Assembly: GCA_965215515.1 (NCBI GenBank)
Contig: OZ244057.1
Span: forward strand, 512,001-576,000
Length of the DNA stretch: 64,000 bases
Direction: 5' to 3'
Source: Oligoflexales bacterium
GTDB taxonomy: Bacteria; Bdellovibrionota_B; Oligoflexia; Oligoflexales; JAPPIL01
Below are positions 48,001 through 54,000 of this stretch, piece by piece. A program made the position numbers. Each line of letters starts with the position of its first letter. Within the stretch, counting starts at the first letter, position 1.

Positions 48001-51000
48001 ACTTGCTGCAGGAAATTTGTTTTTGTTACTGGAGGGATCGATGCAGTTTCTAATTGTGTTGGCAGTGCTGACTGTGAGCAGTACGGCTCTGTGCCGCAAC
48101 GTGCAGTTGCCTAGAGGCGTGGCGGGCAAGGTGCATCTGTTGCATCGTCTGATTATGGCGGGGGAGCAGACGGAGCTGGTACGTTTGCTGTCGCAGCTGC
48201 AACGACATGTCAACGACGGTGACCATGAAGGGCATACGCCGCTGCACTGGGCTGTCTATGCAGACGACCTCGACAGCGCAAAATCTCTGCTGAAGTACAA
48301 AGCTGATCCCAATATCGCGGATAAATACGGGCGCACAGCGCTACACGAGGCAGCACGGGTGGGCAGCAACGAGATGCTCAACCTCCTGATAGACAGTGGC
48401 GGTGATCCTGAAGCACCTGACGAACAGTACGGCTGGGATGCCCTCTTCTGGGCGGCGTACTCGGGCACTAAGGAGTCGCTGCAAACGTTGATAGAGCGGG
48501 TCGGTTCGCAGCACGAGAAGACGGGTGAGAAGACGGGTGGTGCCGACATTTACGCTGTCGTCTTGCAACAAGACGATCCCAGTAAAATGTCGGGCGAGGA
48601 CAACGACAAGATAGCCAAGGTGGAGCTGTTGCTGGCTGCGGGGGTTGTGCCCGACATCGGCGTGGCGATGATGCTAGTCCCGTTGGAAAAGATGACATCG
48701 CTAGCTGCAGTGTTCAATGCTCACGCGGGTGAGGTAGAGTTCAACACTTCTAATATCAATGGCATAGATCCAAGGAACTGGAAGACCTTGCTGATGAAGG
48801 CGATGGCGGCAGGAAGTGTTCCCGCCGCGGAGTTTTTGCTCCGTCAGGGGGCGGACCCCCATGCGGTCGACGGGAAAGGCCGTCATGTCCTCATCTCCGA
48901 CTACCAGAAGGGCGCACAGCTGGAGATAGCGAAGCTCTTGCTCGAACATGGGGTCGAAGTGCAGAACGCAGGTGTCGAGGCAGCCTTCTACGCAGCTCTG
49001 AGGCACGATGACGTGGAACTAGCAGAATTGCTGTTGGCGAAGGTGACAGAAGATGGCGAAAACCCCGTGCCCGATGCATGGGTCATTTTTCGCGGCGTAC
49101 CTAACGTGGGCTTAGCACCCGCGATACAGTTAGCGAAGAGTGAGGAGATGCAGGAGCTGTTGCTGCTGTACGGTCTGGGCGAGCAAGACAGACTGAATGC
49201 GATCGTGCGCACCCTCGAACAGAGAGTTAAACAAAAACAGGGCGGTAGCGTTACACGAGAAACGGCGCGCTCCGTGCCTGATTTTCTGATAGACTTCAAC
49301 GCCCTCGCCGCGGCGGGCAAGTTTAAGCCCGTCATCGGCCGCGAACGGGAAATACAACAGGTGATCACGGCGCTGGCCCGCAAGGAGAAAAACAACCCGC
49401 TGCTGGTCGGGGAGGCTGGTGTCGGCAAGACCGCCATCGTCGAAGGCCTGACGCAGCGTATCGTCGCGGGAGACGTGCCCCCTATCATGCGCGACAAGAC
49501 CGTCTACGCCCTAGACATGGGTTTATTGCTCGCCGACAACATGCATCGCGGTCAGCTCGAAGCTGTCATCACCGAAGAGCTGTTACCTTTCATCGCCGAA
49601 AACGAGAGTAATGCCATTCTTTTCGTCGATGAGATCCATCAGCTCATCAGTTCAGCGGCGGCACGGGGGATCGCGGACTTGTTGAAACCTGCCCTGGCGC
49701 GGGGGGACATACACTGCATCGGTGCGACGACGCAGGACGATTATCAGCAACACATTATGCTGGACAGTGCGTTAGAGAGACGTTTCTTCCCTGTCACCGT
49801 CGCCGAGCCGTCGGTCGCAGACACGATCGCTATCGTCAGCGGCTTGAAGAGGGTGTATGAACAGCACCACGGCATTACCATCAGCGACAGTGCCGTACAG
49901 GGTGCGGTAAAACTTGCTGACCAGTATATCACTAACCGCTACCATCCCGACAAAGCCATCGATCTGATCGACATGGCGGCGGCAAAAGTCGTGGTCAATG
50001 AAGGCAAAGATCTGCAATTTTTACAGGTAGCTGAAGTCGTCGCCGACGTGACGGGCGTGGCGGTGGAACGCATCTTGATCCGTCCCCAGGATAAGGTTGA
50101 CCGACTGTTGCCTTTTATGCAGCGACGTATCTTTGGACAGGACGAGGGATTGGAAGAAATCGCCAGATACCTTTCCCCTTTTCTCATGGGGGTCGGCGAT
50201 CAGGACAGACCTGCGTCGCTGTTGCTGCTGGGGCCGACTGGAGTTGGCAAGACAGAAACGGCAAAGGTGCTGGCGGAACATTTTTTCGGAGCAGATGACA
50301 ACCTGATCAACATCAACCTCAGCGAATACCGCGAGAGACACGATGTCGCGAGTCTGATCGGTGCTCCCTCAGGTTACATCGGCTACGAACAAGGTGGTAT
50401 TCTGACCGAAGCCGTGCGCCGTAAACCCTTCTCGGTGGTGTTGTTCGATGAAATAGGCGAGGCACACCCAGATTTTGCTGGCATTCTGTTAAAAATTCTC
50501 GATGAGGGTGAGCTTACCGACAAGAGAGGACGTACGACCAATTTTAGAAACACCATTATCGTCATCACAGGCAACACCGAGACCAGCAAAAGCCGTGGCA
50601 GTGTCGGTTTCAAAGCGGGGACGGAACAGGCATCCCCCAGTGGCGTGAGTGCGAGCCAAGTCCCGATACAGGCCAAATTGCAAGGGCGTTTAGGAAAAAT
50701 TATCACCTACGCTTCCTTGCCAGCAGAAGTGATGGGGAGACTGATCAGCAAAGAACTCGCCCGTTTCAATGCCCAACTGGCACAAAAAAACATCTCTATA
50801 TCGCTCACCGCTACCTTGCGTAAACATTTGCGTGAACGGGGTTATAAACCTGAACTGGGAGCGAGGTCACTGCAAAACATGCTTGTGGAGTTGGTGGAAA
50901 GTCCGCTGTCAGCTAAGCTTGCCACCGGTGAATTGCAAGAAAATCGCCACTACCGTATCGGCATCAGAAACGGCAAGATAACGATTAAGGAACAACCCGC

Positions 51001-54000
51001 AACACGTCAAAAATAAAAACTCAGTGGCTACCACACCGCTTGTGCTGCACAATTAGCAAAAATTGTGGGTGCAAACGATGTGGTTTGCTCTTTGGACAGG
51101 AGGCTTTCTCGCTGGCTGGTTGCTGGCTAGGGTCGGGCAGTTTGACTTCTTGTCGTGGTCATGGTTGGCCTTTTTGCTGGCGTTGCTGCTGTTGCCGCGG
51201 GCGCGCCATGCCTGGCTGTGGGCGGCTGTCGGTCTTTGTTTCGGCAGTTACCACAGTGCACCCTTCCCCAGCCAACCCCTCGCAGCTGTGCGCAGTGTAC
51301 AGCATAATCCCTTGCAATTTTTTTACAGCCCCACCATCGCCACCACCAGCACCCAGGCACGCTGGCAGGTAAGGAGCTATCCACACAGTCAGGGTAGCGT
51401 GCCTGAAAGCGCAGGGAAACAACCCCACTTCATCTTCCCCCGCCCGCCACATTTGCGTGCGGAGCTAGCAAGCGGCGAACAAGCCAGGCGGAGCGCAGCG
51501 GAGCTAACAAGCGGCGAACAAGCCAGGCGGAGCGCAGCGGAGCTAGCAAGCGGCGAACAAGCCAGGCGGAGCGCAGCGGAGCTAACAAGCGGCGAACAAG
51601 CCAGGCGGAGCGCAGCGGAGCTAACAAGCGGCGAACAAGCCAGGCGGAGCGCAGCGGAGCTAACAAGCGGCGAACAAGCCAGGCGGAGCGCAGCGGAGCT
51701 AGCAAGCGGCGAACAAGCCAGGCGTGCCTCGCCTCCACCGCTCGTGCACACGATGCGCCGCTATCTTTTGCGCCAAGCTGACAACCTATGCGAGCCAGTA
51801 CACAGCTGGATTGTCAGCATCACGCTGGGCAAACGCAAGGACATGCCACACCCCTGGCGGGAGGCGTTTCGTCTGCTCGGTTTGTTTCACGTTCTGGTAA
51901 TCAGCGGGTTGCACATCACCATCATCGCGATGGGAGGTAAAAAACTGCTCGACCTTACCCTGCGTTCCCTCTACGTCGTGCGTCTGTTGACTCCTAACAG
52001 TTGGCTGCTGCTGACCAAACTGGCCAGTCTGTTGAGTTGCCTGCTGATTCTGTTTTACGGTTGTCTGGTCGGTTTCTCCGCCCCCGCACAACGTGCAGTG
52101 CTGTTGTTCCTCGCCCACCAAGGTTGTGCCCTAGGGGAACATCACGTTTCCCTGACGGAGAAGATCAAGCTGGTGTTCTTCTTGCAGATGTTGCTTTTTC
52201 CCATCGGGTTCTTATCCGACTCGTTGCTGCTCAGCTGGGGGGCTTACCTCATCGTGCTGCACTGTTTTCGAGAAGTGAAGCATGCACAGTCGTGTGGCGG
52301 CAAGCTTGCCGCCACGCTGCGTTCCCAGTTGCTCATCACGGCTCTTATTCTGTGTTTTTTCAGGGAGTTGAGTGTCTTGTCGATTCCGCTCAACATCTTG
52401 CTACTGCCTTTCATCCCCTATCTGGTGATGAGCGGGTTTCTGTTGCTGTTGTTGCCTGCGAGTACACCTCTCGCGGGGTGGATCGAGTACTCGCACCTGT
52501 TCTTTCTGCAACAAATTGCCCGTCTCGCTGAAATAGCCTCTACTTACAGCTGGTTAATCATCGACCTGCACGATAGCCCTCCTCTGCGGGTCGGTCTGTT
52601 CGTCATTTTGATCCTTATGGTCTTAAGGAGAAGCATGTTTGTGACGAAAAGGGATGCGGGGCGAAGTTAGGAGGTGACAATTGAACATCGGAAAAAATTG
52701 GCAGGGACAGAGAGTACTTATCGTCGATGATGCCAAAGTGGTAAGAACTGCGGTGGGCAGGATATACACCGAAGCGGGCTTACACGTCTGCGGTGAGGCG
52801 GAAAACGGGCTGCGGGCACTGGATTTTCTGGAGAAAAATTCCGTAGACCTGCTCAGCCTAGACGTGATCATGCCAGAGATGAACGGCATCGATTGCTTGC
52901 GCCGCATTAAACGCATCGGGATGCCGTTACGCACGGTCTTTTTGAGCTGTCTCTTCGACGACCGCAAGGTCGTGGCGCGCCTGCAGGAAGAATTTTCTGA
53001 TGTCGCCTTCGTGAGCAAACCGTTGACCAGAGAAAGCCTTGCCCAAGCACTGCACCATCTCTCTGGCACTGGACGTAGGGAGATGGCGATGAGTGCTTGA
53101 TGTTCCCCCGCTTCGGTACACACAGTTGCCGAGCGCGAGTTTTTGTGCTACTCTCCGCCGCTCGTACAGTCCACAGGAATTTGTGGTGCGAGCCTCGTGG
53201 TCGCCGATTTTCGCGGTGGACGGCCGCGTTTTTTTCTGTTAGACTGGCCAGAATTTTAATAAATCATGACTCGTGAGGAACGTGATGTTGGTTGCGGCGC
53301 TACGCTTTGTCCTATTGTTGTCTCTTAACTCGGCACGTCCATGAGGGTGGCGAGACTTTTTACAGCCCACAAAACCAGCCCGTACGATGGTTTGGAGTTC
53401 GAACAGCGCCAATCTGAACTGAAAAACCCCGACGGCAGTGGAGCGAGTGCGGCACTAGAGGTTACCGTCCCCAAAAGCTGGAGCAATGTTGCCTCCGACA
53501 TTATGGCACAGAAATATTTTCGGCGGCGTGGTGTTCCCGAACAGGGAGCGGAGAAGGATGCACGGCAGGTGTTTCATCGTCTCGCAGGGTGCTGGCGGTA
53601 TTGGGGGGAGAAACACGGCTATTTTGACAGTACCGAGAGCGCCGCGGCTTTCTACGATGAAGCCTGCTTCATGCTGGCACATCAGTACGGTGCGCCGAAC
53701 AGCCCGCAATGGTTCAACACAGGCCTGCACTTCGCCTACGGACTGGAGGGGCCGCCACAAGGTCACTACTACGTCACACAGAGCGGCGAGATCGTCGCGT
53801 CGGATAACGCTTACGAACGGCCACAGCCACATGCCTGCTTCATCCAAGCGGTACGGGACAATCTCGTCAGCGAGGGTGGCATCATGGATTTGTGGGCGAA
53901 GGAAGCACGCCTCTTCAAGTACGGTAGCGGGACGGGGACTAACTTCAGCAGTCTGCGGGGCAGAGGTGAGCCGTTGTCGGGGGGTGGAGTGTCCTCGGGC

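Follow-up and report, generated by a model that had tools for sequence, protein, structure and literature searches.

An ankyrin-fronted Hsp100 protein with a signal-like N-terminus in a small lineage of Oligoflexales

The gene described here, which we call ankyrin-Clp, is predicted to encode an intact, selected two-ring Hsp100 motor whose client-selecting front end would be an ankyrin solenoid of about 350 residues, standing where a Clp N-domain would sit. Its N-terminus looks like a Sec signal peptide in build, which changes where the protein may work. Our best reading, held tentatively and at somewhat less than an even chance, is that ankyrin-Clp is an unfoldase working outside the cytoplasm on ATP from a host or prey cell. 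All coordinates are positions in the window, the 64-kb stretch of DNA that was analyzed, and the family denotes the ankyrin-Clp query together with 13 relative clusters (14 in all).

Gene, domain order and motor motifs

The longest open frame at the locus spans 47981-51016 (+), and the gene itself begins 3' of a Shine-Dalgarno-like site (Table 1). The first-pass annotation had suspected that the hydrophobic N-terminus reflected a miscalled start. The called ATG is upheld by the GGAGGG site, by an N-terminus kept in 13 of the 14 clusters and in the orthologue of genome G003, and by the family alignment, in which no internal start Met is conserved across the 14 members; the wrong-start explanation was set aside on these grounds. 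A promoter scan at the gene returned 0 sigma-70-like sites. A serine recombinase gene lies directly upstream, and the idea of a mobile island was rejected because there are no flanking repeats and the GC content matches the rest of the genome. No operon partner was found, as the 20-kb neighborhoods of G000, G001 and G002 have nothing in common except the ankyrin-Clp gene.

The protein runs from a hydrophobic N-terminal segment through the ankyrin solenoid (about residues 30-376) to two complete Clp/Hsp100 AAA+ modules. Pfam places Ank families at approximately 54-155 and 248-341, AAA at 454-581, AAA_lid_9 at 591-658, AAA_2 at 725-885 and ClpB_D2-small at 893-973, and finds Clp_N (PF02861) in neither the query nor its 13 relatives. 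The AlphaFold2 model of the N-terminal part has a pLDDT of 81.6 and a pTM of 0.74; the solenoid is irregular at 156-190, carries a beta-hairpin at 349-360, and is matched by Foldseek to multi-repeat ankyrins and to the ANK domain of RNase L over 300-400 columns. The linker that follows runs into a P-D-F-L-I-D-F-N motif, common to ankyrin-Clp and a neighboring ClpB-like clade. The NCBIfam ClpA model covers the protein as one stretch (residues 399-970 onto profile positions 155-729 of 734) and the ClpB model matches it in two, from which we conclude that there is no middle domain; two separate Clp alignments likewise place no middle-domain insertion.

In both rings the Walker A, Walker B, sensor-1 and arginine-finger residues are the same in all 14 family members, and because of this invariance the motor is probably in use. 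Two AAA+ modules with these residues and a D2-small domain are the hallmarks of class I Hsp100/Clp proteins. D2 retains the threading tyrosine and D1 all ATP-handling residues, and the aromatic pore residue of D1 has been lost in half of the family, the position occupied by His502 in the query being Tyr in three members, Phe in four and non-aromatic in seven. In the alignment, the candidate ClpP-docking tripeptide V-G-F falls opposite T-I-G-F in the genome's own ClpA and S-V-G-F in a protein named ClpC, and [IVL]-G-[FY] is retained in 13 of the 14 members (the exception, P0014, has I-S-F). This agrees with the [LIV]-G-[FL]-type tripeptide, in the loop after the D2 sensor-1, of ClpP-coupled unfoldases; ClpC uses V-G-F as its ClpP loop. 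The region is deleted in every close paralogue in the alignment, and ankyrin-Clp may dock on ClpP through it. Four earlier descriptions thus stand: a Clp core of two rings whose motifs are intact, a V-G-F that occupies the ClpP-loop position and aligns with I-G-F of the own ClpA, ankyrin repeats in place of Clp_N, and no middle domain.

Table 1. Features of the ankyrin-Clp gene and protein, with positions in the 64-kb window
Feature	Residues	Position	Strand	Basis
Shine-Dalgarno-like GGAGGG		48031..48036	+	4 nt 5' of ATG 48041
Whole gene	991 aa + stop	48041..51016	+	ORF, translation, Pfam, NCBIfam
Signal-peptide-like segment	1-19	48041..48097	+	translation, family alignments
Ankyrin-type solenoid, about 8 repeats, continuous	30-376	48128..49168	+	Pfam Ank, AlphaFold2, Foldseek
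Linker: helix 382-401, then low-confidence stretch	377-419	49169..49297	+	AlphaFold2, alignments
First AAA+ module (D1) and lid	420-660	49298..50020	+	Pfam, NCBIfam, family alignment
D1 Walker A, G-E-A-G-V-G-K-T	457-464	49409..49432	+	family alignment
H502, at D1 pore-loop tyrosine position	502	49544..49546	+	family and Clp alignments
D1 Walker B, F-V-D-E-I-H	528-533	49622..49639	+	family alignment
Second AAA+ module (D2)	690-885	50108..50695	+	Pfam, sequence comparison
D2 Walker A, G-P-T-G-V-G-K-T	731-738	50231..50254	+	family alignment
D2 pore loop, G-Y-I-G, Tyr invariant across family	778-781	50372..50383	+	alignments
D2 Walker B, L-F-D-E	801-804	50441..50452	+	family alignment
Variable loop	846-882	50576..50686	+	alignments
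V855-G856-F857, candidate ClpP-docking tripeptide within variable loop	855-857	50603-50611	+	alignments
D2-small domain	893-973	50717..50959	+	Pfam

Kinship, distribution and the other Clp genes of the genome

The first-pass annotation had called the protein ClpA-type, and as a statement of kinship this did not survive. Against the NCBIfam ClpA model (TIGR02639) ankyrin-Clp scores 554.3 bits, below the cut-off of 993.15, it has no Clp_N, and the order's ClpA clades (nine rows in one tree and five in another, support 100) leave it outside, so that, as far as sequence comparison can tell, it is ClpA-like in layout only. Membership of ClpB/Hsp104 was rejected because the score of 585.6 bits lies under the ClpB cut-off of 1232.1 and no long coiled-coil middle domain is inserted, and membership of ClpC because there is neither Clp_N nor a short middle domain. 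In the trees ankyrin-Clp falls among other signal-bearing Clp paralogues from the same family-level lineage, next to the order's ClpB-like clade; the 20 signal-bearing Clp rows together make up a single clade (SH-aLRT 96). Proteins of the neighboring ClpB-like clade carry a middle domain and lack a ClpP loop; the five members, which lie outside the family, start without a signal-like segment, and their identity to ankyrin-Clp in D1 reaches 57%.

The same build is found in 13 further clusters among 5.8 billion, after which the next match falls from 661 to 499 bits. All 4 genomes of the family-level lineage have the N-terminal part, and in the order (95 genomes) no other family was found to have it; over the whole class the count is 4 of 131 genomes. 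The earlier view of an extra Clp paralogue confined to a small lineage is borne out by this distribution. A search of protein representatives was dominated by giant ankyrin proteins, and among the best 150 matches only P0011 and P0015 match full-length as one stretch. Of two contig scans, the first gave no match, and the second, dominated by ordinary ClpB, gave a match in 598 of 599 stretches, none of them over the ankyrin part.

The genome also encodes a ClpA, with the ClpS gene immediately 5' of it, an 822-aa Clp whose middle domain has the length of that in ClpC, and two ClpPs, neither with a signal; the Ser, His and Asp positions of ClpP_a, the ClpP aligned across relatives, are invariant. 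A 437-aa ORF adjoining one ClpP is ClpX-like as judged by eye only.

The N-terminal segment and where the protein may work

The signal-like segment consists of a hydrophobic core of about 10 residues and a 6-residue polar stretch ending in A-L-C, with R-N-V-Q next. AlphaFold confidence is below 50 for residues 1-28, and for this reason we regard them as not packed on a domain. In 13 of 14 clusters and in the G003 orthologue the segment follows one physico-chemical pattern: at most one basic residue, a run of about 10 hydrophobic residues, and about 6 that are polar or helix-breaking, the side chains at -3 and -1 being small. P0006 begins inside the segment. By hydropathy and inspection, which are the basis of the signal-peptide call, the Sec type I build (n-region, core of 7-15 residues, small -3/-1) is present in the same 13 clusters and in G003. 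A lipoprotein (type II) signal was rejected since there is no proper lipobox, with Leu or Trp before the Cys and the Cys missing in 3 of 14. A simple hydropathy rule (a 12-residue window of at least 2.0 within the first 40 residues) is unspecific: among signal-bearing Clp rows it picks out 18 of 20, among the other Clps 6 of 48 and among crude ORFs 612 of 1843. For a stricter run rule the corresponding counts are 14 of 20, 1 of 48 and 312 of 1843.

In the export reading that we tentatively prefer, the N-terminal signal would be real and ankyrin-Clp would leave the cytoplasm as part of a lineage-specific kit of signal-bearing ATP chaperones, comprising an Hsp70 paralogue, whose gene adjoins that of a putative membrane J-protein, and the Hsp100 paralogues of sister genomes. 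The mature hexamer would be active in the periplasm or beyond. It would draw its ATP from a host or prey cell, for in a bacterium living inside another cell ATP can reach the periplasm. The ankyrin arm would grip targets, D2 would thread them, and the V-G-F loop would pass the chain to a ClpP ring, if one is within reach.

Support for export comes from the conserved N-terminal pattern, from the absence of a conserved internal start and from two orthologues in which Asp or Glu shortens the hydrophobic run to 11 residues, too short to span a membrane. The Clp paralogues of sister genomes add to this with textbook signals ending in V-L-A or A-Q-A, as do the single signal-bearing clade and its signal-free neighbor. 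The Hsp70 paralogue (gene at 965-2884 of the window, adjoining the J-protein gene) has a signal with a hydrophobic core of 8-11 residues ending in A-R-A or A-F-A in 4 of 4 genomes of the family-level lineage, whereas the canonical DnaK genes start straight at the ATPase domain. Further support is given by 19 of the 20 other ankyrin-bearing frames of the genome, which open with lipoprotein-type signals, by PstS, HtrA and a peptidoglycan-hydrolase lipoprotein with signals of like style (no charge at the start, basic residues shortly after the site), and by three secretin genes. A search for FHIPEP found none, and a search for a TLC transporter gave no match, but its controls gave none either. 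Ankyrin-Clp appears to be one of several signal-bearing ATP chaperones confined to the lineage, and is the only one of the set to keep a ClpP-type loop. A signal-bearing PrkA/giant-Clp cassette was considered and rejected, the genome's PrkA row being ordinary and free of signals. Counting against export, a free-living bacterium has no ATP in its periplasm, and the residue after the putative cleavage site is basic in 10 of 14 (Arg in 8, Lys in 1, His in 1), a feature that hampers export in E. coli. The tripeptide is kept in 13 of 14 yet the genome's own ClpPs are signal-free, which fits a cytoplasmic protease partner better.

Such a partner is central to the main rival, which we consider rather unlikely: the segment would stay uncleaved and tether the hexamer to the cytoplasmic face of the inner membrane as a partner of the cell's own ClpP, the ankyrin arm recruiting membrane-near clients, D2 threading them and V-G-F docking on ClpP. 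The model would be FtsH and Msp1, hexameric AAA+ motors held at the membrane by an N-terminal hydrophobic segment. It is in keeping with both intact Walker sets in a compartment with ATP at hand, with a tripeptide preserved inside a variable loop and deleted with its region in all close paralogues, with two cytoplasmic ClpPs, one of them with invariant Ser, His and Asp positions, and with a basic residue right after the hydrophobic segment, as the positive-inside rule for membrane segments has it. The segments of FtsH and Msp1, however, are true membrane-spanning helices, and a core of about 10 residues (11 before the acidic residue in the two orthologues) is too short to cross the bilayer. 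The conserved 6-residue stretch with its small -3/-1 residues would serve nothing in an anchor, the signals of the Hsp70 paralogue and of the 680-aa Clp paralogues are incapable of being anchors, and genuine exported proteins of the genome likewise have basic residues after the site.

We regard as improbable a soluble cytoplasmic remodeller or disaggregase that acts without ClpP in the manner of human SKD3, its N-terminal peptide being regulatory or autoinhibitory and not targeting. SKD3 (CLPB, ANKCLP) has the same order of hydrophobic stretch, ankyrin repeats and Clp-type AAA+; published work describes the stretch as autoinhibitory and removed by PARL, the ANK domain as needed for activity (PMC7343390), and the protein as active in the intermembrane space of mitochondria, beyond the ancestral bacterial cytoplasm (PMC7343390, PMC4339202). 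The unpacked residues 1-28 and the neighboring ClpB-like clade, with its middle domain and no ClpP loop, also suit such a remodeller. SKD3 differs, however, in having four repeats, a single NBD2-type ring and no ClpP loop, and there is no special affinity: human CLPB matches over the NBD only (142-150 bits, no higher than any Clp D2, against 477 for ClpB), and the 60 best PDB matches to the N-domain do not include the ANK domain of SKD3. SKD3 orthology was rejected on these grounds and on the two rings of ankyrin-Clp, and we read the likeness as convergent. A stand-alone remodeller would also leave unexplained both the -3/-1 pattern and the retention of a ClpP-type loop in this family alone. 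That the 5' part of an exported ankyrin gene was joined by chance to a Clp gene in a functionless, drifting fusion, as the unconserved neighborhoods of three genomes and the upstream recombinase gene might suggest, is highly implausible given a frame uninterrupted in every one of the 14 clusters, to as little as 42% identity, catalytic motifs all invariant and a gene present in 4 of 4 genomes of the family-level lineage.

Known systems and significance

The protein resembles ClpA (ClpAP, TIGR02639) in having two AAA+ rings, a D2-small domain and, where the ClpP loop lies, a hydrophobic-Gly-aromatic tripeptide, and in having no middle domain; it differs in having no Clp_N and thus no ClpS site, in the lost D1 pore-loop tyrosine and in the signal-like segment. 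Its top sequence scores are with the ClpC/ClpB type (PDB 3j3s, 1qvr; ClpB 477 bits, ClpC 459 bits), from which it differs in lacking a middle domain and Clp_N, the ClpP tripeptide being absent from ClpB. Plasmodium HSP101, which belongs to the PTEX translocon, is eukaryotic and, unlike ankyrin-Clp, has a Clp N-domain and a middle domain, no ankyrin repeats and no ClpP loop. The likeness lies in a ClpB-like Hsp100 that bears a secretory signal and acts beyond the parasite cytoplasm, next to exported Hsp70-x and Hsp40s (PMC6550532, PMC5316994, PMC10433460). Our literature search found no bacterial ankyrin-Hsp100 and no exported bacterial Hsp70/Hsp100.

Hsp100 motors are distinguished by their front domains, which determine clients, and a bacterial Hsp100 with a long ankyrin arm would represent a new mode of client choice and an independent parallel to the animal mitochondrial SKD3. 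The stranger feature is the conserved export-type signal, common to ankyrin-Clp, the Hsp70 paralogue and other Clp paralogues of the lineage. The prevailing view is that the bacterial envelope, having no ATP, lacks ATP-driven chaperones. If these proteins are truly exported, then either host ATP can power the envelope of a bacterium that lives in a cell, or unfoldases serve as secreted weapons. It is possible, if distinctly unlikely, that the whole chaperone kit is exported and that ankyrin-Clp enters the host or prey cell or is exposed to it, where it would use the ATP and possibly the ClpP of that cell to unfold and destroy proteins chosen by its ankyrin arm. If true, the exported Hsp101/Hsp70 system of malaria parasites would have an equivalent in bacteria, with protease hijacking in addition.

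The ankyrin-Clp gene, its motor modules and its ankyrin arm

The ankyrin-Clp is a two-ring Hsp100 whose first and second AAA+ modules are called D1 and D2 here. It is encoded in a genome of 2.18 Mb (single contig, 52.6% GC, 93.9% complete), and the GC content of its gene is similar to that of the genome remainder. Pfam places no Clp_N domain in the protein, and our alignments contain no middle-domain insertion. The NCBIfam ClpA model matches in one stretch with 554 bits against a cut-off of 993, the ClpB model in two stretches with 586 bits against a cut-off of 1232, and the scores against solved structures are 477 bits for ClpB, 459 for ClpC and 413 for ClpA. 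When the family of 14 (the query and 13 related clusters) is aligned, the Walker A and B motifs, sensor-1 and arginine fingers prove invariant in both rings and the D2 pore loop, G-Y-[IV]-G, intact; the position of the D1 pore-loop tyrosine holds His in the query, and counted over all 14 sequences 3 have Tyr there, 4 have Phe and 7 have a non-aromatic residue. We regard as solid the prediction from these sequences that the ankyrin-Clp is an active Hsp100 under selection, in which ankyrin repeats form the client arm, D2 drives the pore and a ClpP-type loop is present.

The arm was modelled with AlphaFold2 as residues 1-420, using the 14-row alignment as input (pLDDT 81.6, pTM 0.74). The model has a single helical-repeat body at residues 30-376, with pLDDT below 50 at residues 1-28 and 400-420. 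Foldseek aligned 300-400 columns of it with multi-repeat ankyrins, DARPin fusions and the RNase L ankyrin domain (best E-value 7.7e-11; query-normalised TM-scores up to 0.54). Together these results indicate that the two Pfam ankyrin blocks are parts of one predicted solenoid of about eight repeats. As a separate observation, the same genome has 20 other ankyrin-bearing frames, 19 of which start with lipoprotein-type signals; most form one paralogous family of 360-570 aa. In one member of it a weak Met-zincin match occurs together with ankyrin repeats and a dockerin, and the C-terminus resembles a sorting tail; the product of another frame is 1706 aa long and has at least 16 Ank_2 matches.

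The gene immediately upstream of that for the ankyrin-Clp encodes a serine recombinase (resolvase and HTH), and its frame shares 62 nt with the 5' end of an asparagine synthase frame. We found no repeats flanking the recombinase and ankyrin-Clp genes, and their neighbourhood is not conserved among this genome (G000) and the sister genomes G001 and G002.

Coordinates of the ankyrin-Clp gene, its domains and the other genes discussed (window positions unless a locus, L, or residues are named)
Feature	Position	Strand	Remarks
Ankyrin-Clp, longest frame	47981-51016	+	ORF
Ankyrin-Clp, called start ATG	48041	+	GGAGGG 4 nt ahead; product 991 aa
Ankyrin families	residues ~54-155 and 248-341		Pfam
AAA	residues 454-581		Pfam
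AAA_lid_9	residues 591-658		Pfam
AAA_2	residues 725-885		Pfam
ClpB_D2-small	residues 893-973		Pfam
Serine recombinase	47245-47886	+	
PilB, PilT, PilC, then PfaA-like polyketide-type fatty-acid synthase genes	13375-27288	+	
Myxococcus-type PilA-like pilin	63456-63977	+	window end
Hsp70 paralogue	965-2884	+	PF00012 match from residue 32
Three-gene row	1-848 and L199:1446-7849 (upstream of window)		1249-aa and 885-aa proteins, then Hsp70 last
Six double-ring Clp paralogues of sister genomes	L171:113-2494; L172:642-3155; L173:580-3468, 3681-6584; L174:717-2759; L175:702-2750	-; +; +, +; +; -	837 and 793 aa, short ankyrin block and middle domain; 962 and 967 aa, ankyrin repeats without middle domain; 680 and 682 aa, without ankyrin repeats
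822-aa Clp, own genome	L007:1009-3477 (G000:C1:2045505-2047973)	+	
ClpP, first type			197 aa; upstream of an ORF judged ClpX-like by eye
ClpP, second type			191 aa; stand-alone
Third ClpP	L159 (G002:C1:1221525-1222067); L160 (G003:C197:16769-17308)		canonical type, short N-terminal extension
Other ankyrin-bearing frames (examples)	L178:62-1153; L179:23-1690; L180:113-5233	-; -; +	

Distribution, kinship and the ClpP-type loop

Among 5.8 billion clusters the architecture is common to 13 besides the query (966-1005 aa, 42-66% identity in the alignment), and beyond these relatives the score falls from 661 to 499 bits, where ordinary ClpB begins. The N-terminal 420 aa are present in all four genomes of the family (1.9-3.1 Mb); searches with this part found 5 of 95 genomes of the order at E <= 1e-10, the fifth having generic ankyrin matches only, and 4 of 131 genomes of the class at E <= 1e-30. 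A 60-row tree (quick IQ-TREE, SH-aLRT support) recovers the 14 ankyrin-Clps as monophyletic (support 100), apart from the ClpA, 822-aa Clp and ClpB clades and adjoining a small clade (100) of proteins of about 800 aa that other families of the order encode. These combine a small N-domain with a middle domain of ClpB length and lack about 31 residues at the expected ClpP-loop site; their best NCBIfam model is ClpB, under its cut-off. Of the records with a name, the nearest in a set of 80 loci comes from a MAG labelled Bacteriovorax sp. (63% identity over 784 aa), a hint that the order may lie in or near Bdellovibrionota.

In the ankyrin-Clp the region after the D2 sensor-1 carries V855-G856-F857, which our alignment places opposite I-G-F in this genome's ClpA and V-G-F in a ClpC-named protein. 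The pattern [IVL]-G-[FY] is retained in 13 of the 14 family members while the surrounding loop positions vary freely, the remaining member (P0014) having I-S-F. V-G-F is described here as a candidate ClpP-docking tripeptide. The genome encodes two ClpPs, both without a signal and both of types found throughout the order; the Ser, His and Asp positions of the first type are invariant across 14 sequences. The 822-aa Clp has a middle domain of ClpC length and V-G-I at the ClpP-loop position, and searches of the genome with the ClpA model and the query found no Clp whose middle domain has the full ClpB length.

The sister genomes encode six further double-ring Clp paralogues, at least five of which begin with a hydrophobic segment that resembles a signal, the 793-aa protein having the least clear start; the segment of the 680-aa type ends in V-L-A or A-Q-A. 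The ClpP-loop region is missing from all six, the D2 pore loop also from the 680-, 682-, 962- and 967-aa proteins, and compared with these paralogues only the 991-aa family keeps the ClpP loop. The ankyrin-Clp's own genome has the 991-aa form without the other signal-bearing paralogues. When the paralogues were added to the tree, the 20 signal-bearing rows formed one clade (SH-aLRT 96). Constraining the 11 loop-deleted rows to one clade cost 31 log-likelihood units (p-AU 0.018), a test affected by long branches and by a group chosen after the tree was seen; this cost suggests either several losses of the loop or its regain in the 991-aa family.

The N-terminal segment and the site of action

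A common N-terminal build is found in 13 of the 14 clusters and in the orthologue of sister genome G003, the start of the remaining cluster (P0006) falling inside the segment. Met and a single Arg, Lys, Gln or His open the segment and lead into a hydrophobic stretch of about 10 residues; next come about 6 that include Gly, Ser, Pro, Asp or Glu, and the end is small-x-small (A-L-C, V-W-C, V-W-G, A-W-G, V-S-A or L-Q-A). In two orthologues an acidic residue caps the hydrophobic run at 11. A lipobox reading was rejected because 3 of 14 lack the Cys at the segment end and because the Cys follows Leu or Trp. Directly after the segment, 8 of 14 have Arg and another 2 have Lys or His. The same signal style, an uncharged start with early basic residues, is seen in PstS, HtrA and a lipoprotein hydrolase of this genome, so that the Arg counts only weakly against export here.

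The window also encodes an Hsp70 paralogue that starts with a textbook-type signal-like segment and has AGGAG upstream; its orthologues in the three sister genomes are likewise signal-like, ending in A-R-A or A-F-A. A canonical DnaK is encoded elsewhere in the genome, and the canonical DnaKs of G000, G001, G002 and of G049 and G025, two genomes from outside the family, start at the ATPase domain. Searches of 9 genomes outside the family gave DnaK-like matches only, in 8 of them (38-46% identity). The Hsp70 gene ends a row in which the 885-aa protein is signal-like and the 1249-aa protein starts in a signal-like manner, contains hydrophobic segments and carries a J-domain at its C-terminus. G001 and G002 share this row; G049 and G025 lack it and gave J-domain matches only.

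A tether at the cytoplasmic face, from which the ankyrin-Clp would work with the cell's own ClpP, is favoured by the need for ATP and by the ClpP loop; we consider this reading somewhat less likely than export. Intracellular bacteria have inner-membrane ATP/ADP translocases, from which it follows that ATP can reach their periplasm. Improbable, in our judgement, is a soluble remodeller like SKD3: human CLPB/SKD3 structures score 142-150 bits over the NBD only, and a sequence search with the ankyrin part put generic ankyrins on top and SKD3 outside the best 60. SKD3 itself is described as an ankyrin domain fused to part of a bacterial clp gene, with an origin in stem holozoans (PMC4339202), and as having an MTS followed by a hydrophobic autoinhibitory stretch of 35 residues, then four ankyrin repeats and a single NBD (PMC7343390).

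Ankyrin abundance in bacteria is reported to track a host-associated lifestyle (PMC3932732), and accounts of malaria parasites provide a eukaryotic precedent for exported ATP-driven chaperones (PMC6550532, PMC5316994, PMC10433460). Our full-text literature search found neither an ankyrin-Hsp100 from bacteria nor an Hsp70 or Hsp100 that a bacterium exports. Because of the signal build, the Clp paralogues and the signal-bearing Hsp70, we tentatively favour the possibility that the ankyrin-Clp is exported and may act outside the cytoplasm.
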